From: Escherichia coli
GTDB lineage: Bacteria > Pseudomonadota > Gammaproteobacteria > Enterobacterales > Enterobacteriaceae
Direction: 5' to 3' (one strand)
Assembly (NCBI RefSeq): GCF_036507355.1
Contig: NZ_AP027877.1
Length of the DNA stretch: 64,000 bases
Within the stretch, counting starts at the first letter, position 1. Each line of letters starts with the position of its first letter. A program made the translations under genes and the position numbers. The notes beneath the pieces were generated by a model. It made no database searches, was not told where the DNA came from, and was given only the letters and a program-made list of their open reading frames with translations. Shown here in pieces: positions 25,644 through 50,522 of this stretch.

Positions 25644-25730
25644 GCCCGGATGGTGGAATCGGTAGACACAAGGGATTTAAAATCCCTCGGCGTTCGCGCT
25701 GTGCGGGTTCAAGTCCCGCTCCGGGTACCA
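25644..25730 (+). tRNA. leuZ: tRNA-Leu (anticodon UAA), integration target of the island
   Basis: GCCCGGATGGTGGAATCGGTAGACACAAGGGATTTAAAATCCCTCGGCG...CCGGGTACCA, long variable arm. Confidence 0.95.
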
Positions 25731-25805
25731 TGGGAAACATCAGAATAATCAAAGCAATAAGCAGTGTCGTGAAACCACCTTCGGGTGGTTTTTTTGTGCA
25801 TGCAA
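25675..25805 (+). repeat. Left direct repeat (attL): 3' half of tRNA-Leu plus downstream terminator
   Basis: About 131 bp repeated with a few mismatches and a 2-bp indel at 51890-52022. Confidence 0.85.
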
Positions 25806-25969
25806 TTCACGCCCTGTGCATATCCTGTGCTCACGGGGTGCAATGAGCTGCAATCTTCAGCCTGGCAATGCCGAATCGAACGTGTCGCTTCCAGCATAGA
25901 GAACCAGGCCGCTTTGCCTGTTTTCCGGTACGCTTCCGGGAAGGGGGCCGCTGAGCAAGCTGTAATGCT

Positions 25970-26709
25970 CTAGCCACCCTGAGTACAAAGTTGCTTAATT
26001 CGTGCAATCACCTCATCTCTGTACTTCTGGTGTCCGCGCATAGCCCTTGGATGGGCAATTCTGAAACAGATTGCATTACCTGTTTTGAACTCCCATAGCT
26101 TCCCCGGAATGACTGCAGAAGTCTCATAGCCGCCCAGCTCAGTAAGCACCTGTTTTATGATGTAGTCTGTTCTCCGGGCTCCAGATGCAAAGATGATGAA
26201 ATCAGGCTCAAGGTGTTTAATTTGTACCGCCAGCAGCTTCAGCGAGGCAATATAACTTCCTGCACTTCATTTTGAGGGCGATTGAGAGGGGTCAGTCCGT
26301 CGTAATCCCACGCCAGTAGATTGGCATACACGATAGCCTGAGGAGGGATATTAAGCTCCCGGGCCAGCCTGAAATGATACTGCGTGAAGCGGCTACGTGA
26401 TTTGAGGTTAGTGGTGCCATAATTTTGTACCGGAAGATGTTTCCTGTAACGATCTACAGCTTCTTCAACCACCTGCCCGATGGTGACGTCAGGTATAAGT
26501 CCCAACACCCGTGATATCGTATTCTTACCATTCAGAGTATTCCAGCCAGCGGTTTCACGTCCAACCAGCATGATTTTTACCGGTGAGTGCCAGTATTCTT
26601 CAAAGGGCACGGGTAAAAAGACGCCTGAGTATTTATCCTCATTCAGGTTAAATGACTGGGCGTCAACTTCCTGCAATATCCGTTTGTACGCGTCTAATAG
26701 CTTTTCCAT
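25970..26709 (-). pseudogene. Uracil-DNA glycosylase-like gene (family-4-like), apparently split by a frameshift near 26239-26260
   Basis: ORF 26239-26709 (...KIMLVGRETAGWN...) continues in another frame to 25970 (...FRIAHPRAMRGHQKYRDEV...), resembling UDG motif A and the C-terminal HPS-type motif B. Confidence 0.45.
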
Positions 26710-26789
26710 TCTTCAATCCTGCCCCGTAATAAAAACACCTTCAGATATATATTATCTCCATGATATCAATCAGATACATGAGGATAATT

Positions 26790-27989
26790 ATGCAAAAATC
26801 CTTCCGGTTTACCAATGCATCCATCAAAGCCCTACCTGCAAATACTGATACCCGCTCTACAGAGCTTGAGGTATCTGATACCGAAGTTATTGGACTCAAG
26901 TGCCTCTCAGGTCGAACAGGCAACAAGCGCTTCCTTCTGCGGTATACATTCCACGGTACCAAAAAAAGTATCAGTATTGGCAGATTTCCTGAAATTGATG
27001 TGGGAACAGCCCGGCAAATAGCCCGTCGTCACAAAGAAGCGATTGCGCTGGGAAATGACCCTAAAGCGGAGCGAGATAACTACCGCGCGATGCCAACACT
27101 TGGTGAGTTTTTCCATCAAACCTATGTTCCTTATATAAAGCGCCATAAAAAGTCATGGGATAAGGATGTTCAGCGTTTCACGCAATACATTGAACCTCGT
27201 CTGGGAAAGATACGTTACTGCGATCTCAGGGCCAGAGAGATACAACAGGTGCTGTTTGACATGCTGGAGGGGCGTATTCACGGGCAGCAATATGCGCCGT
27301 CTACCTGTAACAGAGCCCTTGCTATTCTGAAAACGATGGGGCGTTATGCGTTGCGACAGGATGTGCTGGAAAAGAATGAAGCCGATAAGATCCCTTTGCT
27401 GAAAGAGAATAATCAGCGGACGCGCTTTTTTGATGCTGATGAGATCAGGCGCATTCTTGACGCTGCTACCCAATATCCCAACAAAGCTGCCGGGGGATTG
27501 ATAGCCATGTTGTTGTTAACCGGTACACGCAAATCAGAAATGCTTAATGTCAGGCATGAACATATCGACCGGGCCAATCGTACTCTGTTCATTCCTTATA
27601 CAAAAAATGGTCGCAGTCGGACGGTATATCTAAGCGATGCCGCATTATCGATTATTGATGCTATCCCACGAGTTGGCAGTAATCCGTATCTGTTCGCCAT
27701 TAAGGATAATGGAAAACCGATATCGGAACCCCGATGGGCATATGAAAAAATACTGGCACAGTGCGGTATAGACAAGAATGAAGTCTGTTTTCACACCACA
27801 CGTCATTCTGTTGCCTCTTTACTGGTTTCGAGTGGTCAATTCAGCCTGTATGACGTTAAAGCCCAACTGGCGCATGCCAGTATTCAGAGTACAGAACGTT
27901 ACGCGAAATTAACACCGGAACGTATGCGTCAGACAGGGCAGGGAGTGACTGACCTGCTTCTGAATACTGCGGCTACGAAGCAGATGTGA
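26790..27989 (+). CDS. Tyrosine recombinase / integrase (P4-like arm domain)
   Basis: N-terminal arm-binding region, catalytic HTTRHSVAS (HxxR) and TERYAKL (Tyr); start taken at MQKSFRF. Confidence 0.85.
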   Translation: MQKSFRFTNASIKALPANTDTRSTELEVSDTEVIGLKCLSGRTGNKRFLLRYTFHGTKKSISIGRFPEIDVGTARQIARRHKEAIALGNDPKAERDNYRAMPTLGEFFHQTYVPYIKRHKKSWDKDVQRFTQYIEPRLGKIRYCDLRAREIQQVLFDMLEGRIHGQQYAPSTCNRALAILKTMGRYALRQDVLEKNEADKIPLLKENNQRTRFFDADEIRRILDAATQYPNKAAGGLIAMLLLTGTRKSEMLNVRHEHIDRANRTLFIPYTKNGRSRTVYLSDAALSIIDAIPRVGSNPYLFAIKDNGKPISEPRWAYEKILAQCGIDKNEVCFHTTRHSVASLLVSSGQFSLYDVKAQLAHASIQSTERYAKLTPERMRQTGQGVTDLLLNTAATKQM

Positions 27990-28019
27990 CTACTTTTTAG
28001 CAAACTATAAATATGGAGA

Positions 28020-28262
28020 ATGAGGATGCATTTAAAATGCCCACAGTGTGGCAGTTGTAATACATTGATAAGTTCAGCAGGAAAACTGCCATCGATAACC
28101 GATAATAAACGCTCTGGGTATATTAGCCTGGAGTTTTTACCTGAAATACTGAAAGAAATTATTAAGGCTATTAAAAAACTATTTGGATTCCTTGAACAGT
28201 GTGAAAGGAATAATGCTCCAGTGCTTATCTGTATGGACTGTGGGTATTATGAAAGAATTTAA
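28020..28262 (+). CDS. Small zinc-ribbon protein (two CxxC pairs)
   Basis: CPQCGSC ... CMDCGYY in an 80-aa ORF. Confidence 0.5.
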   Translation: MRMHLKCPQCGSCNTLISSAGKLPSITDNKRSGYISLEFLPEILKEIIKAIKKLFGFLEQCERNNAPVLICMDCGYYERI

Positions 28263-28357
28263 ATAGAAAACCAATAACTGTAAATAATAGTTATGCGGAT
28301 GTATAAAAACCCCGATACGTTAATCGTATCGGGTTTTTTGTTTATGAGGATCATTCA

Positions 28358-28729
28358 ATGAAATTTGTCTCGAACTGGCAAGACCTGCCGTCGCTCCTTC
28401 TTCCGGAGTCAGTAATGAGTCTGTTGAAAACAGAGCTGGTACTCCCATTTGAAGATGAATACTCTGCAATGAGTTTCTGGGATGAAGTCGGGGTGACATT
28501 AATATATGTCGAGCCCGATGATGTACCTGAAGATATTAAAGCGCAGGTATTAAATGTGATTCATCAGTTAATTGCAAATCCAGAATTTGTAGTCCGTCTG
28601 ACAGATGACTATTACCTGATGCTTTCTGTTACGGAAGATAACGGGAACGGTATTTATCTGTTATTTCACCCCGATTGCCCTCTGAAGGGTATTGATTTAT
28701 TAGTTTCTATGGCCGAATCACGCTATTAA
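28358..28729 (+). CDS. Hypothetical acidic protein (123 aa)
   Basis: ORF in a same-strand cluster; no family recognised. Confidence 0.5.
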   Translation: MKFVSNWQDLPSLLLPESVMSLLKTELVLPFEDEYSAMSFWDEVGVTLIYVEPDDVPEDIKAQVLNVIHQLIANPEFVVRLTDDYYLMLSVTEDNGNGIYLLFHPDCPLKGIDLLVSMAESRY

Positions 28730-28754
28730 ACACAAGCAAAACCAGGAACACAAA

Positions 28755-29288
28755 ATGAGTAAATCAAAATTAGTTAAAAATAATGTTGAGTCAGTTTCGA
28801 AGGAGATTAAAAATGAGGCAGAGGTTATTCATGAAAATCTCAGTGCAGATGAACAAACATTATCTGATGTAAAAGACTATCAGTTGCTCATTGAAACAGG
28901 TCAGGCAGAAAAAATCAGTCCTAAGGCAAGTGGTATGCTGACATGGCAACTGGCGATATCAGAGGTGGACAATGAACTTTATCTTCGTCTGGTGGCAAAT
29001 GGCTGTGGAGGGTTGTTCTCTAAGGACTGGATCTCACTTTCAAAGATTGCATCTGTTCTGGAAACACAACCTGCTACCGGCTTCTCATCCGGAGTATTCA
29101 GGCCGCTATTCAAAGGGGCAAGCACCAACAATGCAGGTTTTCTGGCTGCAGTTTTACGCTCCCCGGATATATGTCTGCTGGAGGCACATCCAGAGAAGTT
29201 ATTTACTCATGTATTATACCCGGACTGGAGGGAGCGGTTGAATAAACTTAATACGATTAGTAGCCAGGAAAAGATTACAGAGGATTAA
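28755..29288 (+). CDS. Hypothetical protein (177 aa)
   Basis: ORF 26 bp after the previous gene; no family recognised. Confidence 0.5.
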   Translation: MSKSKLVKNNVESVSKEIKNEAEVIHENLSADEQTLSDVKDYQLLIETGQAEKISPKASGMLTWQLAISEVDNELYLRLVANGCGGLFSKDWISLSKIASVLETQPATGFSSGVFRPLFKGASTNNAGFLAAVLRSPDICLLEAHPEKLFTHVLYPDWRERLNKLNTISSQEKITED

Positions 29289-29360
29289 TTTATTTCCTGC
29301 ACTGTTATACAACCAGAAATCACCACACACCACTATTTACTTTCTAAAGGAAAATTTATT

Positions 29361-29795
29361 ATGCAAACCCAATATGCCTTAAAACAGGCAGGATTAACTC
29401 TGCCTGTTACTAAAGAATTTCAGCAGCATATTACTACGCTTCTGGCAAATCGGGTTTTACAAAAAATAACTGAGGCAGTGGTTATTAATTTCCGTGATCC
29501 GGACTACAGTGCAGAATCCGGCGGATTTCATCCGGTTGAAATGCGATTCATCCGTCAGGATAACGAATGGTATTTCGATTATGTCACAGACTTTAGTTAC
29601 ATGGGACGAGTCTACCCGGAACTGGAAAAAGAAATTGATTTTTGCTGGTCGGGGAATTATGTCTTCCATTATCTGGCTGGGGATATTTCACTGGCGGCAG
29701 AGAGGAATGAACTCTGGTCCTTATGGGAGGGTAATTTTATGGATTACCTGTCTATGGGGATTTACCGGGTAACGGTAACTGTGGAAAGTTGTTGA
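29361..29795 (+). CDS. Hypothetical protein (144 aa)
   Basis: ORF with plausible spacing; no family recognised. Confidence 0.5.
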   Translation: MQTQYALKQAGLTLPVTKEFQQHITTLLANRVLQKITEAVVINFRDPDYSAESGGFHPVEMRFIRQDNEWYFDYVTDFSYMGRVYPELEKEIDFCWSGNYVFHYLAGDISLAAERNELWSLWEGNFMDYLSMGIYRVTVTVESC

Positions 29796-30096
29796 CCCGT
29801 TATGAACAGGAAGAAAGCGGGCGGCTTTGTAATCTACTGCATGTGGCGTGCATCACAGCATGGAGATGATGTCTCTTTTTCCTGGCTGTTCGCATAAACA
29901 AGTGCAGACACGGGGGATCTCAGATCCCTCGTGATTTTTGCCCCCTATGGTGCATTCTCCAGTAGCAGGGTGATAACGGTTAATCCATTACCCCAACGAC
30001 AGTATTACACCGGTAATAAATGTTCATGAATACAGTTAGTTATGTGGGTTTTGAGGTGGGCTATGTCATCGTTGACGATAACTGAAGGTTTTACAG

Positions 30097-30324
30097 ATGT
30101 ATAAAACTCGCGGTGAAAGGATCGCAGAAAGGCTGTGCTGGATATTACTTCAACTGTATACCGGTAATACGGTATCGGTTAATGATATATGTCAGCGTTT
30201 CGCGGTCAGTCGCCGAACCGGACAGCGTGATTTGTTGAGAGTTGAAACTGTAACGGAAACTATTTCACCTGGAAGGGTAAGGCTGGCAAATTTGATAAGG
30301 GAACGAGTTAGACGAAATTTTTAA
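30097..30324 (+). CDS. Short HTH protein, possibly a remnant of a DeoR/WYL-type regulator
   Basis: VSVNDICQRFAVSRRTGQRDL resembles the N-terminal HTH of WYL/DeoR regulators; only 75 aa. Confidence 0.35.
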   Translation: MYKTRGERIAERLCWILLQLYTGNTVSVNDICQRFAVSRRTGQRDLLRVETVTETISPGRVRLANLIRERVRRNF

Positions 30325-30546
30325 TCGAATCCATATCAATTCTATAAAATATGAAAATTAACGGGAGTAAATATACACTCCCGTTATAATGCAACCTTTT
30401 TTTAACTACTCAAATGATATTAATTTAGGTGCGACAGTGTTTTTATGACATGTTAAATTCGCAAGATCAATAATATCATGAAACAATTTTAGGTAATGCT
30501 GCCAACTTACTGATTTAGTGTATGATGGTGATTTTAAGGTGCTTGC

Positions 30547-30822
30547 GTGGCTTCCATTTCCATCAGATGTCCTTCCTGCTACGCTACTGAAGGCGTGGTG
30601 CGTAACGGCAAAAGCACTGCCGGACATCAGCGCTATCTCTGCTCTCATTACCGTAAAACATGGCAACTACAGTTCACTTACACCGCCTCTCAGCCCGGTA
30701 CGCACCAGAAAATCATTGATATGGCCATGAATGGCGTCGGATGTCGCGCCAGTGCACGCATTATGGGCGTTGGCCTCAACACGGTTTTACGTCACTTAAA
30801 AAACTCAGGCCGCAGTCGGTAA
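30547..30822 (+). CDS. insA: IS1 InsA
   Basis: [40 protein letters not shown]... Confidence 0.92.
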
Positions 30823-30848
30823 CCTAGCGCATACAACCGGGCGGTGAT

Positions 30849-31244
30849 GTGATTGTCTGCGCTGAAATGGACGAACAGCGGGGTTACGTCGGCGCTAAAT
30901 CACGCCAGCGCTGGTTGTTTTACGCGTATGACAGGATTCGGAGGACGGTTGTGGCGCACGTATTCGGTGAACGCACTCTGGCCACACTGGAGCGTCTTCT
31001 GAGCCTGCTGTCGGCCTTTGAGGTCGTGGTATGGATGACGGATGGCTGGCCGCTGTATGAATCCCGCCTGAAGGGAAAGCTGCACGTTATCAGCAAGCGT
31101 TACACTCAGCGCATTGAGCGACATAATCTGAATCTGAGACAACATCTGGCAAGGCTGGGACGGAAGTCACTGTCGTTCTCAAAATCGGTGGAGCTGCATG
31201 ACAAGGTCATCGGGCATTATCTGAACATAAAACACTATCAGTAA
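30849..31244 (+). CDS. insB: IS1 InsB (transposase part; InsAB' made by frameshift)
   Basis: ...[47 protein letters not shown]... Confidence 0.9.
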
Positions 31245-31435
31245 GTTGGAGTCATTACCTGTTTTTGCTGCATATTTGGCCATGCACTTTTGCCATCAAG
31301 TCAGAGAGACAGGGGCACCGTAAGAGACGAAGGTTGCTGCCTGTGATGAGAGGTTATCAGCAATTACAATGGTCACTAATATTTACATAATGTCGGAGAA
31401 CATCATTTTAGTTGAAATAATATAAAGGCGGTTCT

Positions 31436-31762
31436 ATGTATTTACATATCAGAAAGTATCAACTCGTAAATGCGAGATGGCGTGATATCATTGATTTGAC
31501 GGATTATGAAGAAACAATCAAGCAGGTTGTGAGTACATTATTTGGAAATGATTTTATTGAGGTCAGAGTTGAAACGCGTTGTTTTATTCTGACAGTAAAC
31601 AGTACAAGCAGTAAAATACCACACGGCATACTGGTGAATATGGGGAAAAGGCTGGCGGCGAATCTCCAGAGTATCACCTGTCATGCCATGCGGATCTATC
31701 ATGTAAATGGCCATCCTGACGCGCGGCAGTTATTTCACTGTTTTGATGCCGATTGCCTGTGA
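31436..31762 (+). CDS. Hypothetical protein (108 aa)
   Basis: ORF between IS1 and the convergent polymerase gene; no family recognised. Confidence 0.4.
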   Translation: MYLHIRKYQLVNARWRDIIDLTDYEETIKQVVSTLFGNDFIEVRVETRCFILTVNSTSSKIPHGILVNMGKRLAANLQSITCHAMRIYHVNGHPDARQLFHCFDADCL

Positions 31763-31810
31763 TTAAGCCCCCAACTTCTGTTAAAGGAGTTGGGGGAGAT
31801 TTAACGGTTA

Positions 31811-34474
31811 TCAGACTGGAAGACAGAATGTCGGATATTTACGGGCTATGATATCCATCAGTGACTTCATTCGCGGTGTTACAGAACTAAATTTCATTTG
31901 GGGTATTTTTGCTCTTACCGCATTTTTTACATCAGTCACCGTTACTGAATAGCCTTCTGACGTCAGCCATTCAGCAACCTCTTTACAGGAATAACTTTTT
32001 TTATCTTTCAGCATCAGCCCCCATTGGCACTGAGTCAGCGCCCGGAGAAATAGTCTGACTAAAATATCATCACTACGTTTGCTTCCGACTTTTAGTTTCA
32101 TATCAGAAAACACCGTCCGGCAATAGAGAAAATCACACCAGTCATCCCAGTCAGCCAGGGTCTTCAGTGTATGCGTTTGCCGCCAGTCGTCGAAAAGGGA
32201 GCGTTGCTGCAGAGCCTCTTCCATATTATCCCACGGGCGGGAAAACATCAGTAGATGCCCTTCATTCATGGCGGGCCGTACGGGCTGGCGTTTGAAATCG
32301 AATTCCAGATTAAGACGGATATCCTGTTCCCGGGATACCAGATCGCTTTCCGAGAGCCACATCTCACGCGTTGATATCAACGTACTTCGGGATAACGTCT
32401 GACCGGGTAAACGATTAAGGTAAAGATCTACCATATAGTCGTTATAGTCACTGCGTGGAATATCGGCAGGAGGTTTGACGCCAGCCCTGGCATGAACAAC
32501 AGGTTTTCCCTGAATCGCTTTATAGGTTAACTGCCCCCGGGTTTTCATGGCGATAAGCTGGCTGACCTCATGCTTACATGTCAACATTGATGAACCCGGA
32601 TCAACAATATCGCACAGCGACTGGAAGCGGGAAGACAGTGGACCGCTCATGTTTATCTTGTCAAGTGGGCAATTTGTCAAAAAACCATCGGTTGTGACGC
32701 TGACAACCGATGAATCAGAAGGCAAAGCATTCATGAGTTCCCCGACAACGGCGCGGATAAATCCCGTCACATGCGCAGCAAAGAATGGCTGAGTAACCGA
32801 TGATGGTGGGAGGGATCTGTTTAATCCACGGGCAGTATCAAAGGCGGTTTTGGCGCGAAGGCCCTGAGCAAGTTTGCCATAAAGCGAGTTGCCAATTTCT
32901 TTCCAGAATTTCTCCTCCAAAGAACCCTTAATATGGCGATTACGGTTCTCACGGACCTGTTGAACAAAGGGAAGAAACACCGATGTTGATTCGCTGTTAT
33001 GTGGGGAGGTGTCACAGATCCAGGGGACGATGATCCCATTATGGATCGTCATCTCTGCCCCGAGCGACAGAGCAAGTTCGATTTCAGGTGCCGTTGCCCA
33101 TGATTCGCCACTTAATGGAAAGAATAACCCATATTGATCGGTCCGAACCGGCAGGCTGGGATAGGGAACTGATTCCGGGAACCGAAATGTGACAAGCGCA
33201 AATCCCATCACATGCCCACAGTAATCGTCCGGATTTTTACTGAGGCGGATGTTTCCGTAATCGGGTATGAGGATATCTAATAGCCCGGTGGTATACGCTC
33301 CAGCCAGATCGTAGTCATACCAGTGATCAGACGGTGTAACCCCCATCATAAAACACTCATTGCGTCCGCCGTGGTAACAGTTGATCGGGAACGTTTCAAA
33401 CAACTCTCTTGAAGGAACACTGGCGGGGTTTTTAATCGTCCGGAATGCCTGTTTCTCCGTGAGCCAGAGTTCACGGGTTTTAATGTGTGTCCCAAGGCAG
33501 ACTTCAGGAGACATATTGTTTTCTTTAAGTGTTTTGGTGAACCGTGAAACTGCCATCGCCCCGATGGTGGCGGGGACACGATCAATCATCAGCTCCCGGG
33601 CGCAAAAATTGCGAACCTGTAAAGCATAACGAACCGCAATCTCGGCATCCCGCAGAGCATAGGCTTCAAACCCTGCTCTGTCGCCCAGAAGATATTCACG
33701 CATATTGGTTATGGAATAAGGTGCAGGAATGGTGAGTTTGGGAAGACCCAGTAATTCACCACATTCAGCCAGACCCATACCCCCGGGAGTGATAAGCAGT
33801 GTATCGATGAAAGCTACGTTACTGCAACGCGGAGGGGAAGTTCGTTTGTCAAACATTATCTGTTCAGTCTTTACGCGACGTTCCTGCTGTTCATCAAAAT
33901 CGATACCGTAACGATTTTTGAAGCTGCTGACAGTACCGCGTATTCCTTTCAGAAGAATTTTGTAGTCTGACCAGAAATTGGCAAAGGAGGCGATATCCGC
34001 ACGAATGAAATGCGCATATATATTAATAATACCGGGCCATTTTGTAATCACACCCGTTTCAAGAAGCGGTGTAATCGTTTGACAGAGAAATTCCTTAAAA
34101 GACAGTCGGGATTTTTTCTGTGAGTCAGGTGGATAGATAATGTTCGATATACCAGTGTTATCGGGTAAGACGACATAACTCTGATATGACAGAATATCAT
34201 TCTGTTGTGTTTCAGGATTGAAAACATATTCGGTATCAAAACCGATATGGAGTGTCAGGTCACTTGAAATAACAGATACTTTTTTTGATGCAGGTGGTAT
34301 CACAGGATAATCATCAAGCGTTTTAGGTCTTTTAAGATTGAGCGCTGGCTCTGAAGTCACGGACTGATACCCCGAGGCGGCAGCGAGGATATCCTGCAAA
34401 TTATGGCTCATAGTTAACTCCGAAAAAATGCCGGGAGCTGTGTCCCGGCATAAAGAATCAAGATTTAATAACAT
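31811..34474 (-). CDS. Family-B DNA polymerase of the primer-independent PolB (piPolB) type
   Basis: Exo I FDTEY, motif B KEIGNSLYG (KxxxNSxYG), motif C-like VTTDG, and KTRG in AMKTRGQLTY in place of the KxY motif; 887 aa. Confidence 0.85.
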   Translation of the reverse strand: MLLNLDSLCRDTAPGIFSELTMSHNLQDILAAASGYQSVTSEPALNLKRPKTLDDYPVIPPASKKVSVISSDLTLHIGFDTEYVFNPETQQNDILSYQSYVVLPDNTGISNIIYPPDSQKKSRLSFKEFLCQTITPLLETGVITKWPGIINIYAHFIRADIASFANFWSDYKILLKGIRGTVSSFKNRYGIDFDEQQERRVKTEQIMFDKRTSPPRCSNVAFIDTLLITPGGMGLAECGELLGLPKLTIPAPYSITNMREYLLGDRAGFEAYALRDAEIAVRYALQVRNFCARELMIDRVPATIGAMAVSRFTKTLKENNMSPEVCLGTHIKTRELWLTEKQAFRTIKNPASVPSRELFETFPINCYHGGRNECFMMGVTPSDHWYDYDLAGAYTTGLLDILIPDYGNIRLSKNPDDYCGHVMGFALVTFRFPESVPYPSLPVRTDQYGLFFPLSGESWATAPEIELALSLGAEMTIHNGIIVPWICDTSPHNSESTSVFLPFVQQVRENRNRHIKGSLEEKFWKEIGNSLYGKLAQGLRAKTAFDTARGLNRSLPPSSVTQPFFAAHVTGFIRAVVGELMNALPSDSSVVSVTTDGFLTNCPLDKINMSGPLSSRFQSLCDIVDPGSSMLTCKHEVSQLIAMKTRGQLTYKAIQGKPVVHARAGVKPPADIPRSDYNDYMVDLYLNRLPGQTLSRSTLISTREMWLSESDLVSREQDIRLNLEFDFKRQPVRPAMNEGHLLMFSRPWDNMEEALQQRSLFDDWRQTHTLKTLADWDDWCDFLYCRTVFSDMKLKVGSKRSDDILVRLFLRALTQCQWGLMLKDKKSYSCKEVAEWLTSEGYSVTVTDVKNAVRAKIPQMKFSSVTPRMKSLMDIIARKYPTFCLPV

Positions 34475-35096
34475 TTACTACAGATTTGAAAATATCGGTT
34501 TTGCGTGATTCATCATCTACATGGATAAAGGAAACGAGTTTCCTGCCTGCTTTAATCAGGATACCGCGTTGCGTCTTTTCCACAGACGGGGTAACGTGTG
34601 CAGATAACAGACAATGTTCATGTAAATGAAGAAACTTTTTTGAGGCGTAGCCGCCATGTAATCGGGCTTGAATGTCAAGATACATATCATCAAGAGAACC
34701 GGGTTCTCCTGATTCACTCAATACCGGATAACCCTTCTTATCAAAGAGGTTAAGGATAGATTTACTATCATGTTCGAACAGGGTAACACCGTAAATGTAT
34801 TTCATTCGAAAGGTGAGGGAATCGGTGGTGTAGACCTCCTCCTGACGATTGAAATTTTTGAGACGCCTGGCTAATTCATTAAAAACAGCACGAGCAGTAG
34901 CCGTGTCCTGCAGGGTGTAGGTATAAAGTACGAAGCCATCTGTGCCGATGAGCTTTACTAAGTTGTCCATAATCGTGATAGCGAGAACTAATGCAAAGGA
35001 TAGATATTTTTCATCGTTGTCTACAGCTGTGTTTGCTGCTTCAGGAAGAATGTTCAGTGCATTATTAGCATTATTTGCTGTGTTCTTAGTAACCAT
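34458..35096 (-). CDS. Hypothetical protein (212 aa) co-transcribed upstream of the polymerase
   Basis: Overlaps the polymerase start by 17 nt and the AlpA-like gene stop by 11 nt. Confidence 0.55.
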   Translation of the reverse strand: MVTKNTANNANNALNILPEAANTAVDNDEKYLSFALVLAITIMDNLVKLIGTDGFVLYTYTLQDTATARAVFNELARRLKNFNRQEEVYTTDSLTFRMKYIYGVTLFEHDSKSILNLFDKKGYPVLSESGEPGSLDDMYLDIQARLHGGYASKKFLHLHEHCLLSAHVTPSVEKTQRGILIKAGRKLVSFIHVDDESRKTDIFKSVVNVIKS

Positions 35097-35286
35097 TTAT
35101 ATCACCTTTAAGTTTGTTTTGACGATGTGCATTTTCCCACTCAACAATATCATCAAGAGAGAATCGTATAGCCCGCCCAATTCTGATGAAGGGCGGGAGT
35201 TTTCCGGGGTTGCGCGATATATCTGACGCAACCGTGGATGCAGAAAGATTAAATCTTTCTGCGAACTGCTTAATGGTTAAATACAT
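35086..35286 (-). CDS. AlpA-family phage-type regulator / excisionase-like HTH protein
   Basis: 66 aa, MYLTIKQFAERFNLSASTVASDISRNPGKLPPFIRIGRAIRFSLDDIVEW, typical AlpA/Xis HTH_17. Confidence 0.75.
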   Translation of the reverse strand: MYLTIKQFAERFNLSASTVASDISRNPGKLPPFIRIGRAIRFSLDDIVEWENAHRQNKLKGDINGY

Positions 35287-35436
35287 AAACCTCCGGTTTC
35301 AGAGAATAAGAAGCCACGCGGATTTAATATCAATCCACATTCTGTGATGACTTAATGCAGGGCCCTGCAGAAGCATGCAATGACAATACCGTCCTTAAAC
35401 GAGTGTTGCATCAATCACGAATCACAGATCATAGGT

Positions 35437-36564
35437 TCATTTTGTGTCATAACTTTCTATGACCTGAGAAACCACTGCGTGTGATGTCGCTGCATTGTGA
35501 AAAGCGTAGCGACGGGTCGCCGTGAGTGAATGGTGATTTAGCAGATGGGAAGCGATTGCAATATCCCCGGTCGCCTGTAGTACCCGGGTGGCAAAGGTAC
35601 GGCGCAGGTCATGCATCCGCAGGTTATCAATGTTGGCATCCCGACAAATACGGGCAAAGGTTGCACGCGGATATGCCAGAGGGCGGGCATTGTCGGTTAG
35701 TTGTGGAAAAATGTAAGTTTTGCTGAGCATCAGGTCCTGCTGGCACTGGACAACTGCAATGGCTGGAAGTGCAAGTGGGCAGGTGAAAGGGTGTCCGGAC
35801 TTTGTATCAGGCAGTATGAGTTGATGCATATCCGGGTGCCAGTACTCCCATTTCAGGGTACATACCTCACCAATACGCATCCCCGTATAAAGAGCAAGCA
35901 ATATAGAATCAGCTGCCGGTGTTTGCAGCGCTGTTGCTGCGTTAATAAAGCGCGGGATTTCTGTCGCTGACAGTGTGCGATAGCGAATGTTATTTTCTTT
36001 CAGATAGCGGACATGTGACATCGGGGAATGTGTGATCCATCCAGCACGTACTGCCAGAGAGCATATTTTGGACAATATTGCGAGGATACGGTTTACTGTT
36101 GACGGACGTAATTTTTCCCGTAAGCCAGCAGCATATTGTTCTAGTTCTCCTGCCGTGATGTCGCGAAGTTGCCGCTTGCCCCAGAACGGGCGAACGTAGA
36201 GGTTGAGTTTTGACAACTCTGACTGAGGACTCTTTTTATACAACTGCAAATCCGGTAGCCACAGGTCATTGATGGCCTGTTCCACAGTGAATCGACGGGA
36301 CTGAACAGCAAGGCGATTTTTATCGGCAAGCAGGTTCATCACATGCTGACGGGCATCCTCAATGCAGAGATGAGGGAATTCACCCAGTGTTTCATATATA
36401 CGTTGATTTTTGATGGTGGCGCGAAAGGCCAGCGTGATCCGTTTTGGATATACCAGTGCACGCAGGTTTTGGCACTGAATATCACGGTATTCCTGACAAC
36501 CCGTGAGGGGATGTGGAAGTTGGTGAATTGATTTGTTGCTGAAACGCAGATCCAGAATAGGCAT
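35437..36564 (-). CDS. Second tyrosine recombinase / integrase
   Basis: Catalytic HDLRRTFATRV (HxxR) and TRRYAF (Tyr), plus core-binding-like N-terminal region. Confidence 0.85.
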   Translation of the reverse strand: MPILDLRFSNKSIHQLPHPLTGCQEYRDIQCQNLRALVYPKRITLAFRATIKNQRIYETLGEFPHLCIEDARQHVMNLLADKNRLAVQSRRFTVEQAINDLWLPDLQLYKKSPQSELSKLNLYVRPFWGKRQLRDITAGELEQYAAGLREKLRPSTVNRILAILSKICSLAVRAGWITHSPMSHVRYLKENNIRYRTLSATEIPRFINAATALQTPAADSILLALYTGMRIGEVCTLKWEYWHPDMHQLILPDTKSGHPFTCPLALPAIAVVQCQQDLMLSKTYIFPQLTDNARPLAYPRATFARICRDANIDNLRMHDLRRTFATRVLQATGDIAIASHLLNHHSLTATRRYAFHNAATSHAVVSQVIESYDTK

Positions 36565-36706
36565 CGTATTTCTCCTGTAAATGACACTGGAAAAATACGA
36601 TGTGAGGTTATAGTCTGCCAGTTACAGCTTTCACAGTTCATCAGGTGAAAAATGCTGATTCGGATATAATGGCAACACAATTCCATGTCGCCATTATATT
36701 AAGAAA

Positions 36707-37837
36707 CTACAGTTTCATGATCTTGTTCGCTATTTTTTCGAAGTAAACCTCATTCTTAAGAAGAGTGATATTGTTAGTTTGAACACCCAGACCACTGGAG
36801 GTTGACTGGAAGTTGAGTGAACCACTTATCACGGTGGACTTTCCTGATAAAAATGAAATCAACTCCTTGGAAGATGGTGCCCACTCAGGGTTTAAGAGTA
36901 ATGCAATGTAGATATATGTCTTACGAAGCAATTGTTCGATATCTTTTTTATACCCCGTAGTGTTTTGCTTACCTTTAATGCAAATTGATTTGATTATGAA
37001 CTCATCAGGGCTGGTTAAAGGCGTTTTAAACTTATTCAGTGATCCATCGTTATGAATGACTTCATAAGGCAGCATAGATAAAATGATCAATGCAATCATT
37101 TTAGGATGATAAAGGTAGTTATCACGAATGATTTTTCCTGCCTTCATTGTATTGAGTGTTGTTTGAATAAATACAAAAAGATATTCAGAGCAAAAGTAAC
37201 AAAACACAAGCCAGGATAGGTCAATGGCTGGAATGTTAATATCCTTAGGTAGTTTGTTTAGCCAGTATTCAGACTTCAAAAAGGTCCTGATTTCAACAGT
37301 ATATTCATGCATTTTTGCGCTGAAATCAAGCATTGCTACTTGACCTGATTGTTCCGTAACTGTGTGGTCTATAAATGTTAGTGTATTGCACATTTTATCC
37401 AGCGTGTTTTGAAAACAAGAAAGGAGTTCGGCATTATTATTACCATTAACCGCAGATGAAAGTTCAGTTGCAATAAATGCATCCAGTAGCATACAGATTT
37501 TTTTCGGAATGACATTTTTACGGGATTGCTGTGAATAGAAATATACTGCCAGTAAATTAAAGGCAGTGCACTCCTTTTTTAACCATTGTTCGAGCACTGG
37601 GACGTGCTGAAAAAAATTGATATGCTTAGCAGTAGATGCTGATGGAGATAGTACATGAAGAATATCTACAGCAGGCTTCATTTGCAATATTTGATCGGAT
37701 TCGGTAGTCGTCATTAGTTCCAGTAATTGCTGTTCAGAAAATAGTTTAGACAGGTGATCAATGTCTTTTTGGTATTGGTTAAGTTTTTTTAAATTCCCCG
37801 GTACACGGGTTACATTGTTTTTCATTTTCTCGAACAT
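36707..37837 (-). CDS. Hypothetical protein (376 aa), AT-rich orphan
   Basis: Long ORF in visibly AT-rich DNA; no motif recognised. Confidence 0.55.
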   Translation of the reverse strand: MFEKMKNNVTRVPGNLKKLNQYQKDIDHLSKLFSEQQLLELMTTTESDQILQMKPAVDILHVLSPSASTAKHINFFQHVPVLEQWLKKECTAFNLLAVYFYSQQSRKNVIPKKICMLLDAFIATELSSAVNGNNNAELLSCFQNTLDKMCNTLTFIDHTVTEQSGQVAMLDFSAKMHEYTVEIRTFLKSEYWLNKLPKDINIPAIDLSWLVFCYFCSEYLFVFIQTTLNTMKAGKIIRDNYLYHPKMIALIILSMLPYEVIHNDGSLNKFKTPLTSPDEFIIKSICIKGKQNTTGYKKDIEQLLRKTYIYIALLLNPEWAPSSKELISFLSGKSTVISGSLNFQSTSSGLGVQTNNITLLKNEVYFEKIANKIMKL

Positions 37838-38239
37838 AATTTTATCCTCGTTTGAATTAATACACTGATTTAAAAAGTAGCATGTCGTGTTAGCGAGGTA
37901 ATCCTAAAACGTGAATGGGATCAGGGGCAAGCTTGAATCTGCGTAAGGATATGGCTTAAATTTAATGGTGTAATTAGTGGATTAGAGGCTTATAGCTATT
38001 TAAATACAATAAGTTATGACGGTGTGTGGCGGGTGTAAATCGGTTAGTTTTTATGGTTAAAATATGAGCGCTATGAGGTTTCAGAGATGGTGGTGTTTAA
38101 ATTACATAAAACCAAGGCCTGATAATCAGTATCAATACCGGAACGATGTCATATGATTAACACTGTCTATGGCATTGATAATGATCTATGCAAGGCTGAA
38201 ATTAGCTCTGCTTCACGATGATATAGTGTTCTATAAAGA

Positions 38240-39475
38240 TTAAAAGGAAATAAACAGAGCCTTTCGCCGATGAATCAATGTGCTGATTTCCCTCAAATCA
38301 GCCTCAATACTACCAACATCACCAAAGACTTCACCTCTAATCTCACTTCGATTTTTCATGAAATTGGTGCTTAATAAGCTTTCTTTTTTTAATGCCATTA
38401 ATTTTGGTTTTATATCGTTATAGAAATGCTTACGGCTTACCCTGATGCTATGAATCGAGTAGTAAACTGTTTTATACATCAAAAATATAAGTAACTGGCC
38501 GAGAAGATATTCTTTTTCAATGTATTTATATTGAGAGGATTTTTCGCGTTTCGCCAGGTAGAAAACATGAGGTGCGATGATGGTGGGGATAAAATCCAGT
38601 GCTGGAGAGGTTTTGGTTTTTTCTGTTTCTCTTCCGGATTGAAGATGTTGAAGTACAGAGTATACAATGCTTAAAATTATGGCGTTACTTATATTATTAA
38701 TTGCAGTTGGGTAAATATGCAGATTGCTTATCAATTCTGAAAGGCAAAGTAAAACACCAGTGATGTTGGGTTTTCTGCCGGAGATTGTGGTGCTGTTGAA
38801 AATGTGACGATTCTTACGACTTATATTGACAAGTTTATGAGTGCAGAACTCTATATGTTCGACGATTTTATCTTGACTATTTTTAATGTATTTTGAAATG
38901 TTAGTGATCCGGCCATTCAACGTTAGTTCATCAAGCAATATATCATTTTTAATATTGCGAATTTCATCGCAATGTTCACATTGAGAAACTATCTCATGTA
39001 ATACATAACTCGAAGTATTGCGTGACGATGCTGATATGTAATCTAAAATGGAATGCTCGACTTTGATTTTTTGTTTGTATTTTTTAATGCACTGTTTGAT
39101 TGTTTTTTGTAGAGTATTTGAGATGTGTTTTTTATATTCTTTTAGAAAATCTTGCTCTAAAAAGAGTGAGGAGAAGATCAACTGCTGGCGAGATAATTTA
39201 ATCTCAGGCTTGATCAATTTAATCCGAAAAACTCTTCCCTCCAACTCATAGCTGAACATGGAAGATAAGTCATAGTGGGGTGATAAATGTTCGAGTAACG
39301 ACATTCGTGTATTCATTAGCCGCTTGAATTTATGGTCAGCATACATAAGTGTTTTTTTTATTTGCTCATCATAAAGTGGGCCGATAGCGCAGTTGGCAAT
39401 ACTCATTCTATCCGGAGACCTCCAGTCAGCAGGGGAATCACATTGACGGTCATCATTACTATCAAAGGGCATCAA
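38240..39475 (-). CDS. Hypothetical protein (411 aa), AT-rich orphan
   Basis: Long ORF in visibly AT-rich DNA; no motif recognised. Confidence 0.55.
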   Translation of the reverse strand: MMPFDSNDDRQCDSPADWRSPDRMSIANCAIGPLYDEQIKKTLMYADHKFKRLMNTRMSLLEHLSPHYDLSSMFSYELEGRVFRIKLIKPEIKLSRQQLIFSSLFLEQDFLKEYKKHISNTLQKTIKQCIKKYKQKIKVEHSILDYISASSRNTSSYVLHEIVSQCEHCDEIRNIKNDILLDELTLNGRITNISKYIKNSQDKIVEHIEFCTHKLVNISRKNRHIFNSTTISGRKPNITGVLLCLSELISNLHIYPTAINNISNAIILSIVYSVLQHLQSGRETEKTKTSPALDFIPTIIAPHVFYLAKREKSSQYKYIEKEYLLGQLLIFLMYKTVYYSIHSIRVSRKHFYNDIKPKLMALKKESLLSTNFMKNRSEIRGEVFGDVGSIEADLREISTLIHRRKALFISF

Positions 39476-39778: not shown

Positions 39779-41302
39779 ATGAACGACAAAATCAGTCAGG
39801 ACACGATCAACAAAGCCCTGTGGGCCGCGTGTGATACGTTCCGTGGCACCATCAGTGCTGATACCTATAAAGACTTTATCCTTACCATGCTGTTCCTCAA
39901 GTACATTTCAGATGTCTGGCAGGATCACTACGACGAATATAAAGTGCAATATGGCGATGCGCCGGAACTGATTGAAGCGATGATGGCGAACGAGCGCTTC
40001 GTGTTGCCGAAAAGCGCCAGTTTCTATGCGTTGTACGAGCGACGTCATGAGCCGGGCAACGGTGAGCGTATCGATCAGGCGCTGCATGCGATTGAAGAAG
40101 CCAACGGCACCAAACTGAAAGATGCCGGGAAAAGTGTCTTCCAGGATATTTCGTTTAACACTGACCGTCTGGGCGAAGAAAAACAGAAGAACACCATCCT
40201 GCGTCAGTTGCTGGAAGACTTTGCCGGTGAAGATCTTAACCTGAAGCCAAGCCGTGTCGGTACGCTGGACGTTATCGGTAATGCTTACGAATATCTGATC
40301 AAAAACTTTGCTGCCAGCGGTGGGCAGAAAGCCGGGGAATTCTATACCCCGCCGGAAGTTTCGGACCTGATTGCTGAACTGCTCGATCCGCAACCGGGTG
40401 ATACCATCTGCGATCCGGCCTGTGGTTCGGGTTCATTGTTGATGAAGTGTGGGCGTAAAATTGTCTCCGGGCATGATAGTCGTAACTATGCATTGTTCGG
40501 TCAGGAAGCGATCGGTTCTACGTGGTCGCTGGCGAAAATGAATATGTTCCTGCACGGGGAAGACAACCATAAAATCGAGTGGGGCGATACCATTCGTAAC
40601 CCGAAGCTGCTCGATAAAAATGGCGACCTGATGCTGTTTGATATCGTGACCGCTAACCCACCGTTCAGCCTCGATAAGTGGGGCCATGACGAGGCCGAGA
40701 ACGATAAGTTTGGCCGTTTTCGTCGCGGTGTACCGCCGAAGACTAAAGGAGATTACGCTTTTATCTCGCATATGATCGAAACCCTGAAACCGGGAACTGG
40801 CCGTATGGGCGTAGTTGTGCCACACGGTGTGCTTTTCCGTGGCTCCAGCGAAGGTAAAATTCGCCAGAAACTGATCGACGAAAATTTGCTGGATGCGGTA
40901 ATTGGTCTGCCGGAAAAACTGTTCTACGGTACGGGGATTCCGGCTGCGATTCTGATTTTTAAAAAGCAGAAAGTTGATGACAAGGTGCTGTTTATCGATG
41001 CCAGCCGTGAATTCAAGGCAGGTAAAAACCAGAACCAGCTTAGCGAAGAAAACATTAAGAAAATCGTCAAGACCTACCGTGATGGCGATAACGTCGAGAA
41101 ATACGCCTATCTTGCCAGCCTGAAGGAAATTCAGGACAACGACTATAATCTCAATATCCCGCGCTATGTCGATACCTTTGAAGAAGAGGATGAGATTGAC
41201 CTGCTGGCGGTGCGAGCAGAACGCGAGCAACTGAAGGCGGAATTGGCGAAGCTGGAAACGGAGATGGCTGGATATTTGAAGGAGTTGGGTTATGGCTCGT
41301 GA
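39779..41302 (+). CDS. hsdM: Type I restriction-modification methyltransferase subunit HsdM
   Basis: N6-adenine MTase motifs (DPACGSGS, TANPPFS), 507 aa. Confidence 0.92.
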   Translation: MNDKISQDTINKALWAACDTFRGTISADTYKDFILTMLFLKYISDVWQDHYDEYKVQYGDAPELIEAMMANERFVLPKSASFYALYERRHEPGNGERIDQALHAIEEANGTKLKDAGKSVFQDISFNTDRLGEEKQKNTILRQLLEDFAGEDLNLKPSRVGTLDVIGNAYEYLIKNFAASGGQKAGEFYTPPEVSDLIAELLDPQPGDTICDPACGSGSLLMKCGRKIVSGHDSRNYALFGQEAIGSTWSLAKMNMFLHGEDNHKIEWGDTIRNPKLLDKNGDLMLFDIVTANPPFSLDKWGHDEAENDKFGRFRRGVPPKTKGDYAFISHMIETLKPGTGRMGVVVPHGVLFRGSSEGKIRQKLIDENLLDAVIGLPEKLFYGTGIPAAILIFKKQKVDDKVLFIDASREFKAGKNQNQLSEENIKKIVKTYRDGDNVEKYAYLASLKEIQDNDYNLNIPRYVDTFEEEDEIDLLAVRAEREQLKAELAKLETEMAGYLKELGYGS

Positions 41303-42566
41303 TTCGCTTTACCCAGTGAGCGTTAAAGCTGGAAAACCGATCCTTGGAATGCTACCTACAGGATGGCAAAAGTTATCATTAGAAAAGTGCTTAAATATAG
41401 AGGCAAGAAAGGCATATATACAAGATAATCAAGAGTATGACTTAGTTACAGTAAAGCGCTCCAGAGGTGGCGTAATAAGACGTGAGCATCTTAAAGGAAA
41501 AGATATCTCCGTAAAAAGTCAATTCTATATTAAAGAAGGCGACTTTCTCATATCAAAACGACAAATTGTGCACGGTGCTTGCGGTCTTGTACCTAAAGAA
41601 CTTTCTGGCTCAATTGTATCGAATGAATATTGTGTGCTTACAGGGAAGTCCGGTTTTTATCTTCCTTATATGGAATTTCTATCGGAGTCTCTATATTTCC
41701 AGCAAACCTGCTTCCACTCTAGCATTGGTGTGCACATAGAGAAAATGATTTTTAAGTTAGATAGTTGGTTTAAGTGGCCATTTAATATCCCCCCACTGTC
41801 TGAACAAAAGAGAATCGTTAAAATCCTGTCAACCTGGGATAAGGCGATTTCGGTGACGGAAAAGCTTCTCACCAACAGTCAGCAGCAGAAAAAAGCCCTG
41901 ATGCAGCAATTGCTTACCGGGAAAAAACGCTTGCTGGATGAGAGGGGGGTGAGGTTTAGTGGGGAGTGGAAGAGAGTAAAACTGGGTGCGATAGCCGATA
42001 TGAACAGTGGAGGTACTCCGAAATCAACGGTTGAAGAGTATTATGGCGGGAATATCCCATGGGTATCTATTTCTGATATGACATCTAATGGAAAGTGGAT
42101 TGCTACAACTGAAAAATATCTGACTGAATTAGGATTGAACAGTTCATCCGCAAGAATATATCCAAAAAACTCGGTTCTTTATGCTATGTATGCTTCTATA
42201 GGTGAATGCAGCATTGCTGCTGTAAATTTAACATCTTCGCAGGCAATCTTGGGTATTAGACCAAAAGATTGTTTAAATTATGAGTTTTTATATTTCTATC
42301 TTACATCATTAAAAGAAAAAATAAAACTGCAAGGCCAGCAAGGTACACAGTCCAACCTAAACGCCGGAATGGTTAAAGAGTTTGAACTAGACTTACCCAG
42401 TATAAGAGAACAACAAAAAATCGCCGCCGTCCTGTCCGTCGCCGATGCCGAAATCTCCACGCTGGAGAAAAAACTCGCCTGCCTGAGAGATGAGAAAAAA
42501 GCCCTGATGCAACAGCTACTGACTGGCAAACGTCGTGTTAAGGTCGATGAGGCGGTTGCCGAATGA
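41292..42566 (+). CDS. hsdS: Type I R-M specificity subunit HsdS
   Basis: Two target-recognition domains separated by repeated conserved helices (KKALMQQLLTGKKRL / KKALMQQLLTGKRRV); overlaps hsdM. Confidence 0.9.
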   Translation: MARDSLYPVSVKAGKPILGMLPTGWQKLSLEKCLNIEARKAYIQDNQEYDLVTVKRSRGGVIRREHLKGKDISVKSQFYIKEGDFLISKRQIVHGACGLVPKELSGSIVSNEYCVLTGKSGFYLPYMEFLSESLYFQQTCFHSSIGVHIEKMIFKLDSWFKWPFNIPPLSEQKRIVKILSTWDKAISVTEKLLTNSQQQKKALMQQLLTGKKRLLDERGVRFSGEWKRVKLGAIADMNSGGTPKSTVEEYYGGNIPWVSISDMTSNGKWIATTEKYLTELGLNSSSARIYPKNSVLYAMYASIGECSIAAVNLTSSQAILGIRPKDCLNYEFLYFYLTSLKEKIKLQGQQGTQSNLNAGMVKEFELDLPSIREQQKIAAVLSVADAEISTLEKKLACLRDEKKALMQQLLTGKRRVKVDEAVAE

Positions 42567-43246: not shown

Positions 43247-43295
43247 TGAATCTTCATGTGACCAGTAGCGAGTAGCGCCAGAAAGAAAAGGATTA

Positions 43296-47335: not shown

Positions 47336-47393
47336 CTTATCAATATGAGTTCTTAAGGGTTTGGTCAGTCTCGTTAATGTAGGGAGTATAATA

Positions 47394-49232: not shown

Positions 49233-49290
49233 CAAAGTTAGGGTGTTAATTAATCTGTAATGGCATCATGATTTTTAAAAGGAGGTTGAA

Positions 49291-50418: not shown

Positions 50419-50522
50419 AGTAATATGACTGAGTGATGACGATCTTTTTTAAATTGTGGATTATTAGGCTGGTAATTGAAGCGCCGAATAGACAGATATT
50501 GGAATAAAAGGAGAATATTCAA

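Follow-up and report, generated by a model that had tools for sequence, protein, structure and literature searches.

Two tyrosine integrases, probably in separate modules, of an Escherichia coli pipolin inserted in leuZ

The sequence considered here, hereafter called the window, is a stretch of 64,000 nucleotides from Escherichia coli (RefSeq assembly GCF_036507355.1, contig NZ_AP027877.1) whose flanking gene order, uvrC-pgsA-glyW-cysT-leuZ on one side and yecA-tyrP-ftnA-ftnB-araF on the other, is that of the E. coli chromosome. The insert between these flanks is a 26.2-kb E. coli pipolin lying in the leuZ tRNA gene, as follows from the direct repeats that bound it at leuZ and from its coding for piPolB, a primer-independent family B DNA polymerase. 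Both a piPolB gene and direct repeats at a tRNA gene are features of pipolins, and the core arrangement of such elements is present as well: one integrase lies close to att, and beside piPolB there is another, with an excisionase after it. The integration target leuZ, coding for tRNA-Leu(UAA), is the final gene of glyW-cysT-leuZ (25644-25730, + strand; ARAGORN, Rfam tRNA model and K-12 annotation), and the direct repeat of 131-133 bp was delimited by repeat search and alignment to K-12 attB as attL (25675-25805) and attR (51890-52022), the latter being equal to the empty K-12 site. A preliminary description of this DNA had pointed out two different tyrosine recombinases in the element, one about 1 kb from attL and one in the interior with an AlpA-like gene, and had proposed either a composite origin or distinct roles such as integration versus resolution. 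Both integrase genes lie where that description placed them; we abbreviate their products as Int1 and Int2.

Int1 (26790-27989, + strand), presumably the IntSXT of the literature, is a tyrosine integrase whose 399 aa include a P4/SXT-like arm-binding domain, as determined by Pfam, structure alignments and orthologue alignment. Its start at 26790 (MQKSFRFTN...), which is conserved across genera and used by RefSeq even if the longest open reading frame (ORF) begins at 26760, lies 985 bp inside attL. The protein matches Arm-DNA-bind_3 with 53.8 bits (cut-off 27) and Phage_integrase with 84.7 bits (PF00589 cut-off 27.1), and in a search of solved structures its arm domain is related to Protein Data Bank (PDB) entry 3ju0 with an E value of 3.6e-5. 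Int1 therefore has the arm-type N-terminal domain (PF13356) of heterobivalent, P4-like integrases, together with the catalytic set R247/K272/H335/R338/H362/Y371 in alignment to XerA and Xer-like structures.

Int2 (35437-36564, - strand), the interior integrase of 375 aa presumably corresponding to IntP2 of the literature, was defined by Pfam and by structure and orthologue alignments; it scores 28.9 bits with Phage_int_M and 77.3 bits with Phage_integrase, and the same structures align its catalytic residues as R230/K255/H318/R321/H344/Y353. Its N-terminus aligns to the arm domain of Int1; the E. coli protein has no Pfam match in this region, and an Aeromonas-type orthologue of 39% identity matches Arm-DNA-bind_3 marginally (28.0 bits vs 27). 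An AlphaFold model of residues 1-105, built on an alignment that included four P4-like or Int1 sequences, has a pLDDT of 83.6, and its top three PDB matches, 3jtz (TM 0.82, rmsd 2.4 A), 3rmp and 3ju0, are all arm-type binding domains of P4-like integrases, the rest having E values of at least 0.3. The N-terminus of Int2 thus looks like a P4-like arm-type DNA-binding fold, as predicted by modeling. With this domain and an adjacent excisionase-type helix-turn-helix (HTH) protein, Int2 looks like a directional integrase rather than a simple Xer- or Cre-type resolvase. An arm domain and an excisionase partner are traits of directional integrases that are absent from resolvases of the Xer, Cre and ResD types. 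The catalytic domain of P2 Int is closer to Int2 than to Int1 (PDB 5c6k, E value 3e-8; BLASTP 1.7e-12 for Int2 vs 1e-8 for Int1), a similarity that agrees with the published label IntP2.

The two integrases are 27% identical over their full length (E value 3e-30) and hence are homologous but, as the preliminary description had maintained, no recent duplicates. The HxxR and catalytic Tyr motifs recognized there extend to complete R-K-H-R-H-Y sets, which are invariant in the alignment of 21 orthologues (10 of Int1 and 11 of Int2). Scores above the PF00589 threshold, together with these residues, place both proteins in the tyrosine recombinase superfamily; both remain far from the Xer equivalogs (TIGR02224, TIGR02225), the XerC model giving 85.1 bits for Int1 and 58.7 bits for Int2 against a cut-off of 335 and XerD being similar. 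When the two were compared by tblastn with 50,697 phage records, no hit exceeded 29% identity, and identical Ralstonia phages headed both lists, a result that does not help in placing the proteins. Median dN/dS values, calculated with the Nei-Gojobori method over ten E. coli pipolin loci, are 0.03 for Int1, 0.15 for Int2, 0.17 for piPolB and 0.33 for orf212, the gene between xis and piPolB; the xis gene of the putative excisionase has a dN of 0 with up to four synonymous changes, its protein being identical in all 10 loci. Both Int1 and Int2 are intact and under purifying selection, and across their alleles neither integrase is decaying as a class, even if knock-outs exist in single strains: an IS21 interrupts Int1 in CP024275, a frameshift disrupts Int2 in AP042630, and a Citrobacter koseri copy has Int1 in fragments. 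The long-term retention of both genes under such selection implies non-redundant roles.

Int1 differs from the rest of the element in its evolutionary pattern. Among E. coli pipolins that are otherwise 97-100% identical, Int1 alleles diverge with a dS of about 1.0-1.1 and a dN of 0.03, and a sliding comparison restricts this divergence to a patch at about 26750-28340, comprising the gene and 350 bp downstream, up to the bidirectional hairpin terminator that closes the Int1 cassette (28311-28333, terminator scan) and forms the right border of the swappable patch. The alternative E. coli allele is 98% identical in nucleotides and 100% in amino acids to the Int1 of a Buttiauxella noackiae pipolin, whereas piPolB and Int2 of the latter element are only 67-73% identical in nucleotides to those of E. 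coli; the same allele is also 98% identical in nucleotides to that of an Enterobacter pipolin, with polymerases at 67-68% (Buttiauxella/Enterobacter). Since near-identical alleles sit with polymerases of 67% nucleotide identity, Int1 is decoupled from piPolB, and these comparisons indicate that it is a self-contained cassette exchanged between pipolin lineages. An Int1-like gene is found in 441 complete E. coli genomes vs 295 with piPolB, and the three extra cases that were inspected are IS-deleted or decayed remnants still located at leuZ. An illustration of how pipolin ends survive as small defence islets is the 4-kb decayed island at leuZ of E. coli KGu016 (NZ_CP091704.1, 2082543-2086872), which retains just the conserved 246-aa gene found between attL and Int1 and an Int1 stub consisting of the arm domain; genes for an AAA ATPase and an HNH endonuclease come next.

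Int2 belongs to a same-strand string of genes, int2-xis-orf212-piPolB. The xis gene (35086-35286, - strand) codes for a 66-aa protein of the HTH_17 family, an excisionase or AlpA-like regulator, and this is the AlpA-like neighbor of the interior integrase that the preliminary description had noticed. It scores 36.5 bits with HTH_17 (cut-off 27) and matches PHROG_66, 'excisionase and transcriptional regulator', and the identical protein carries the RefSeq name 'AlpA family transcriptional regulator' in some genomes; on the other side, it falls below the curated excisionase model TIGR01764 (24.1 vs 28.8 bits), does not match Pfam Phage_AlpA at an E value of 0.01 and is not detectably similar to P4 Vis or P2 Cox. 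The following gene, orf212 (34458-35096, - strand), has no Pfam, NCBIfam or PDB match. An 11-nt overlap joins it to xis, and piPolB directly adjoins it, an organization that fits one transcription unit. The piPolB gene (31811-34474, - strand; RefSeq-equivalent start at 34411) codes for 866-887 aa with a weak Pfam match to DNA_pol_B_2 and the RefSeq name 'DNA polymerase'; its product is 99-100% identical to those of many E. coli 'DNA polymerase' genes and 48% identical to distant, Aeromonas-type piPolB. Of the genes in this string, orf212 evolves fast, with identities to the window copy of 49% in Salmonella and 30% in Buttiauxella; the slot between xis and piPolB is always filled, in Aeromonas by an ORF of 150 aa, orf212 itself being undetectable there.

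The identity of Int2 tracks that of piPolB in every comparison, from one pair with 97/99% amino acid identity to the values against E. coli in Buttiauxella (77/72%), Salmonella (68/66%) and Aeromonas (37/48%), so that by these identities Int2 co-diverges with piPolB. Another property of the string is a short repeat that brackets int2. Motif comparison across loci places its first copy, S1 (ATGAACTGTGA, 36631-36641, - strand), 77 nt upstream of the int2 start and its second copy, S2 (ATGATCTGTGA, 35422-35432, - strand), 4 nt past the int2 stop, which is 146 nt upstream of xis. The consensus ATGAnCTGTGA has exactly two copies per locus, on the strand of int2, in the window and in five other enterobacterial loci, at 67-80 nt upstream of int2 and at 4-14 nt past its stop or 120-150 nt before xis; four Aeromonas-type loci have ATGCATGTGnTGTCAATG in the same two positions, again with exactly two copies each. 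A repeat of the S1/S2 type flanks int2 in all lineages tested but one. As the upstream regions of int2 and of the xis string share this repeat, S1/S2 are probably a common operator or promoter element that co-regulates int2 and xis-orf212-piPolB. Their interpretation as CRP or LexA boxes was dropped, for by eye just a TGTGA half-site fits, and the palindrome TGCAGGGCCCTGCA between int2 and xis was rejected as a core site because the Enterobacter locus lacks it. When xis, orf212 and the 246-aa gene were compared by sequence with solved structures, no usable match came up.

The two-integrase layout is widespread. Our survey of 5,426 complete E. coli genomes, with piPolB counted at a coverage of at least 80%, found piPolB in 281 genomes, Int2 and xis in 262, the contiguous int2-xis-orf212-piPolB string in 272 and the entire left arm with both integrases in 248. 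The cross-genus set comprises 14 loci, 11 retrieved by a pattern scan with one genome per species and three by protein look-ups (Citrobacter, three; Salmonella, two; Buttiauxella, two; Intestinirhabdus; an Enterobacter metagenome-assembled genome; Aeromonas, four; and a compost metagenome). The order int2-xis-(orfX)-piPolB is present in all 14, an Int1-type gene in every one of those that extend far enough, and the latter gene adjoins glyW-cysT-leuZ wherever the tRNAs are in view. The counting of one versus two recombinases that the preliminary description had suggested therefore gives two as the usual state, and a pipolin-wide survey of this kind is also published (PMC7385651, PMC11551731). 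Judging from these loci, the layout is ancestral and not a recent composite.

The att repeat extends from the anticodon loop of tRNA-Leu(UAA) over the 3' end of the tRNA to 3'ETS-leuZ and the operon terminator. The repeat search found just two att copies in the window, and an Rfam scan detected no further tRNA-like fragment within the element as a possible second att for Int2. Given that attR equals attB and that the element-specific variants of attL, as compared with the empty K-12 site, start at 25734, the alignment indicates that the crossover must lie within 25675-25733, between the anticodon loop and just beyond CCA; the 3' half of the tRNA and the trailer are supplied by the element. The inner flanks of both att copies contain repeated motifs. 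Tandem pairs of YCTGTGC with 11-bp spacing occur exactly twice in the window (0.03 expected), both on the + strand, one at 25813-25834, 8 bp inside attL, as a candidate arm site of the P' arm, and the other at 51763-51784, 105 bp before attR, as a candidate arm site of the P arm. Clusters of [GC]CAAT motifs number three in the window vs a shuffled mean of 0.8, and two of them lie at the att inner flanks: four motifs at 25802-25869 (+ strand) and three at 51811-51856 (+ strand), the latter including CAATTACAG twice. Outside E. coli, the comparison covers the attL side, where the YCTGTGC pair is kept in the Citrobacter, Buttiauxella and Enterobacter loci, while the equivalent place in Aeromonas has a different tandem pair, TTTCTTGTC x2, with the same 11-bp spacing. 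Both families of motifs are far from random in their occurrence and are candidate arm-type or excisionase binding sites. The idea that arm and S motifs co-vary between lineages, as would hint at a single binding protein, was dropped: their shared cores, CTGTG in enterics and TGTC in Aeromonas, have just 4-5 nt and are too short to serve as evidence.

A side aspect of the integration site concerns 3'ETS-leuZ, a small RNA that K-12 annotation describes as a sponge for RyhB and RybB and that is spanned by the att repeat (25731-25805 vs 51946-52022 in the window and the K-12 locus). After integration, the expressed glyW-cysT-leuZ operon terminates in the element's own copy of 3'ETS-leuZ, in which, relative to the native sequence, three bases are substituted and 2 nt deleted within the A-rich region directly after the tRNA and one further position is changed near the terminator (GGGAAACATCAGAATAATC against GGGAAAGATAAGAATAAAATC). 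This variant is present in 9 of 10 aligned E. coli attL sequences (the window and eight loci) and in two Buttiauxella loci. Since the operon ends in the variant copy, pipolin carriage may change the 3'ETS-leuZ sponge.

The remaining genes of the element surround these modules. Between attL and Int1 lies the frameshifted remnant of the conserved 246-aa gene (25969-26709, - strand; RefSeq, PHROG_29550), of which an ORF of 156 aa is left (26239-26709); RefSeq labels it 'frameshifted' in near-identical loci, it is intact in others. This is probably what the pipolin papers call UDG, but sequence matches in Pfam, NCBIfam or the PDB are lacking. Three core genes of 123, 177 and 144 aa (28358-29795, + strand), identified as ORFs and kept in all loci, follow the Int1 cassette, the last being DUF2787 (29361-29795) according to its RefSeq name and to the match of its Salmonella homologue to PF10980. 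An IS1 insertion (30492-31252, + strand; blastn vs other pipolin loci) stands in for about 1.9 kb that code in intact pipolins for a DUF726 hydrolase-like protein and a WYL/YafY-type regulator, the latter recognized by the Pfam families WYL, WCX and HTH_DeoR in the protein of another E. coli pipolin locus. Of the pipolin core genes, DUF2787 is thus retained in the window, most of DUF726 is lost and the WYL regulator is absent owing to the IS1-associated deletion. Upstream of int2 and on the same strand are two conserved orphan genes of 376 and 411 aa (36707-39475, - strand) with homologues in the same place in Salmonella. The cargo module (39779-51704, + strand), delineated from ORFs and the RefSeq annotation of near-identical loci, comprises the type I restriction-modification (R-M) genes hsdM, hsdS and hsdR, a YecA paralogue, an M48 peptidase, a DUF262 protein, a PD-(D/E)XK nuclease and a restriction endonuclease. 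The YecA paralogue, a SEC-C motif protein coded between hsdS and hsdR of the type I R-M operon (42563-43246, + strand), is 57% identical to the product of the host yecA gene located directly outside attR (52141-52806, + strand).

On the whole, we consider it fairly probable that the window contains the standard recombination core of an Enterobacterales-type pipolin in leuZ, with two functional heterobivalent integrases organized in separate modules. The first module would be the monocistronic Int1 cassette, which lies about 1 kb inward of attL and has an upstream region and a bidirectional terminator of its own. Int1 would be the leuZ-specific integrase, recombining attP and the tRNA gene at a point between the anticodon loop and the position just past CCA; like P4-like integrases, it would make use of tandem arm-type repeats that flank the core on both sides. 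The second module would be the tightly packed int2-xis-orf212-piPolB string, in which Int2 and the excisionase-type HTH protein, being expressed together with the polymerase, could act in the phase of excision and replication; Int2 might then serve the same att sites as an excisive or auxiliary recombinase, or else act at a secondary site. The assignment of reactions to the enzymes and of binding proteins to the motifs is what we infer from this organization.

Various observations weigh against such a reading. The excisionase adjoins Int2 and not Int1, and adjacency alone would make Int2 and Xis the pair for integration and excision. The att motifs are not assignable to Int1, Int2 or Xis, because both proteins and motifs change together in the available loci. 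A sequence profile made from Int2 only reaches 3ju0/3jtz at E values of 0.5-0.9, and the presence of P4-like or Int1 sequences in the alignment behind the AF2 model has already been mentioned. Consensus scans for promoters and terminators around both integrases lend no support to the proposed units, promoter-like hits being fewer than in shuffles, and the hairpin at 28311-28333 is the only clear bidirectional one used here. All piPolB matches in the 5,426 complete E. coli genomes are chromosomal, without any episomal pipolin copy, and we found in the literature no excision or integration assay for any pipolin.

The adjacency argument leads to the alternative that integration and excision at the att sites are really the work of Int2 and Xis, with Int1 as an accessory or alternative-site integrase. 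The presence of the excisionase-type HTH gene directly downstream of int2 in every lineage, the co-divergence of Int2 with piPolB, the predicted arm-type domain of Int2 and the invariance of the xis protein in E. coli would all suit this alternative, which we nevertheless regard as unlikely. It is Int1 that lies next to att and shows the strongest constraint, with a dN/dS of 0.03; IntSXT is present in all complete gammaproteobacterial pipolins while IntP2 is missing in some integrated ones (PMC11551731), and truncation of Int1 is linked to loss of apparent horizontal transfer (PMC7385651). Having Int2 and Xis as the main pair is therefore compatible with the data and fits less well. Of similar improbability is the proposal that Int2 resolves multimers of an excised, piPolB-replicated circle, as Cre-lox does for P1 and ResD-rfsF for F. 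Int2 is indeed in one gene string with the replicative polymerase, and resolvase roles have been proposed for the second, serine recombinases of non-gammaproteobacterial pipolins (PMC11551731). Against this stand the predicted arm-type N-domain and the neighboring excisionase-type protein, which known resolvases do not have, as well as the scores of both integrases far under the XerC/XerD cut-offs (85 and 59 vs 335 bits), the failure to find an inverted-repeat core site near int2, where S1/S2 are direct repeats placed like promoter elements, and the lack of episomal pipolins in the E. coli survey. A Cre- or Xer-like resolution thus appears the least consistent with the predicted architecture of Int2. 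Of the distinct roles suggested in the preliminary description, non-redundancy is upheld by the retention of both genes under selection; the specific division into integration and resolution becomes less likely.

The composite origin that was also envisaged there has to be divided according to age. Two elements with their own integrases might have been in tandem at leuZ and subsequently lost the internal att, since tandem pipolins exist in Vibrio (PMC11551731) and the IS1 of the window copy shows that rearrangement occurs. This recent composite is very improbable: att is present in two copies only, further tRNA-like fragments are missing, the 10 E. coli and 14 other-genus loci share one gene order, down to 47% piPolB identity, and the core genes DUF2787 and WYL are between both integrases in all of them. 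The same layout from E. coli to Aeromonas excludes accretion in this strain, as does the co-divergence of Int2 and piPolB; an ancient acquisition of the Int2-Xis module, as suggested by PMC11551731, is the part of the idea that may hold. The notion that one of the two integrases is an inactive remnant, for which the preliminary description had looked to an incomplete catalytic tetrad, is the least credible of all. It may recall the knock-outs in CP024275, AP042630 and C. koseri and the Int1 stubs of decayed islands, but in the window both proteins are full-length with complete catalytic sets, and purifying selection acts across their alleles (dN/dS of about 0.03 and about 0.15), so that as far as sequence goes the notion is refuted for this element.

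Beyond the two-module organization that we favor, the data may be joined in a more speculative picture, which we consider doubtful as a whole. Int1 would be an interchangeable 'docking' cassette for leuZ and Int2-Xis-piPolB a single inducible regulon for excision and replication, with both integrases working on one attP; the switch might operate through S1/S2, driven by the WYL regulator (lost here) or by Xis itself. Equally tentative is the corollary that this attP carries two families of arm repeats, the YCTGTGC pairs and the [GC]CAAT clusters. To our knowledge, no intasome of two integrases with coupling to a self-priming polymerase has been described before.

With respect to published knowledge, the two-integrase layout is already described and typical for pipolins of enterobacteria and Aeromonas, and most often at least one tyrosine recombinase is reported in pipolins of E. 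coli, the lineages in which Int1 is truncated to its arm domain appearing immobile (Flament-Simon et al. 2020, PMC7385651). From an analysis of 9,740 piPolBs, Mateo-Caceres et al. (2024, PMC11551731) reported that IntSXT is ubiquitous and att-proximal in complete gammaproteobacterial pipolins, that IntP2 and an excisionase lie near piPolB in all Enterobacterales and that distant Vibrionales and some Aeromonadales lack IntP2 and yet have integrated elements; their own inference is a primary role for IntSXT and a secondary one for IntP2, possibly a later acquisition. This view, with IntSXT performing both reactions, is compatible with all data presented here. The element is thus correctly identified as a pipolin, and its layout adds nothing to the published description; the details are leads for experiments and not discoveries. 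The role of the second integrase has been a matter of guesswork in the literature, and the Int1 cassette, the co-evolution of Int2 with piPolB, the predicted Int2 arm fold, the two families of att-arm repeats and the repeat bracketing int2 offer handles on the movement of self-replicating islands that carry defence genes.

A comparison with known systems may place these integrases. Older pipolin annotation called the integrase genes 'XerC-like', and the tyrosine recombinase catalytic fold and residues are indeed shared by both proteins with XerC/XerD and Cre/ResD. They differ from these enzymes in scoring far below the Xer cut-offs and in their N-terminal arm-type domain, which for Int2 is predicted, and no dif-, lox- or rfsF-like inverted repeat was found in the element. 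P2 Int is 27% identical to Int2 in the core and catalytic domains only; the N-domain of Int2 looks P4-like instead, and the pipolin excisionase is of the HTH_17 type, not Cox-like. The resemblance is broader with the P4-like (CP4/HPI-type) integrases and satellite P4, which share the Arm-DNA-bind_3 domain with Int1 according to Pfam and with Int2 according to its predicted fold, and which have in common with the pipolin an insertion in the 3' part of a tRNA gene that the element restores as well as a small HTH excisionase or regulator; the tandem arm repeats annotated on both sides of the core in P4 attP are also resembled by the layout of the pipolin motifs. The identity to P4 Int is only 20-23%, however, and the pipolin has two such integrases in one element, a xis product unlike P4 Vis or P2 Cox and replication by a primer-independent PolB instead of a primase-helicase. 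The closest counterparts are the gammaproteobacterial 'IntSXT + IntP2-Exc' pipolins (PMC11551731, PMC7385651, PMC5695915). Nothing essential differs from them, even if the window copy is without WYL and most of DUF726 and has a frameshifted 246-aa gene: it shares with these elements the same tRNA-Leu site with direct repeats at both ends, the same att-proximal integrase near a DUF2787 gene, an integrase and excisionase by piPolB, and a cargo of restriction and defence functions.

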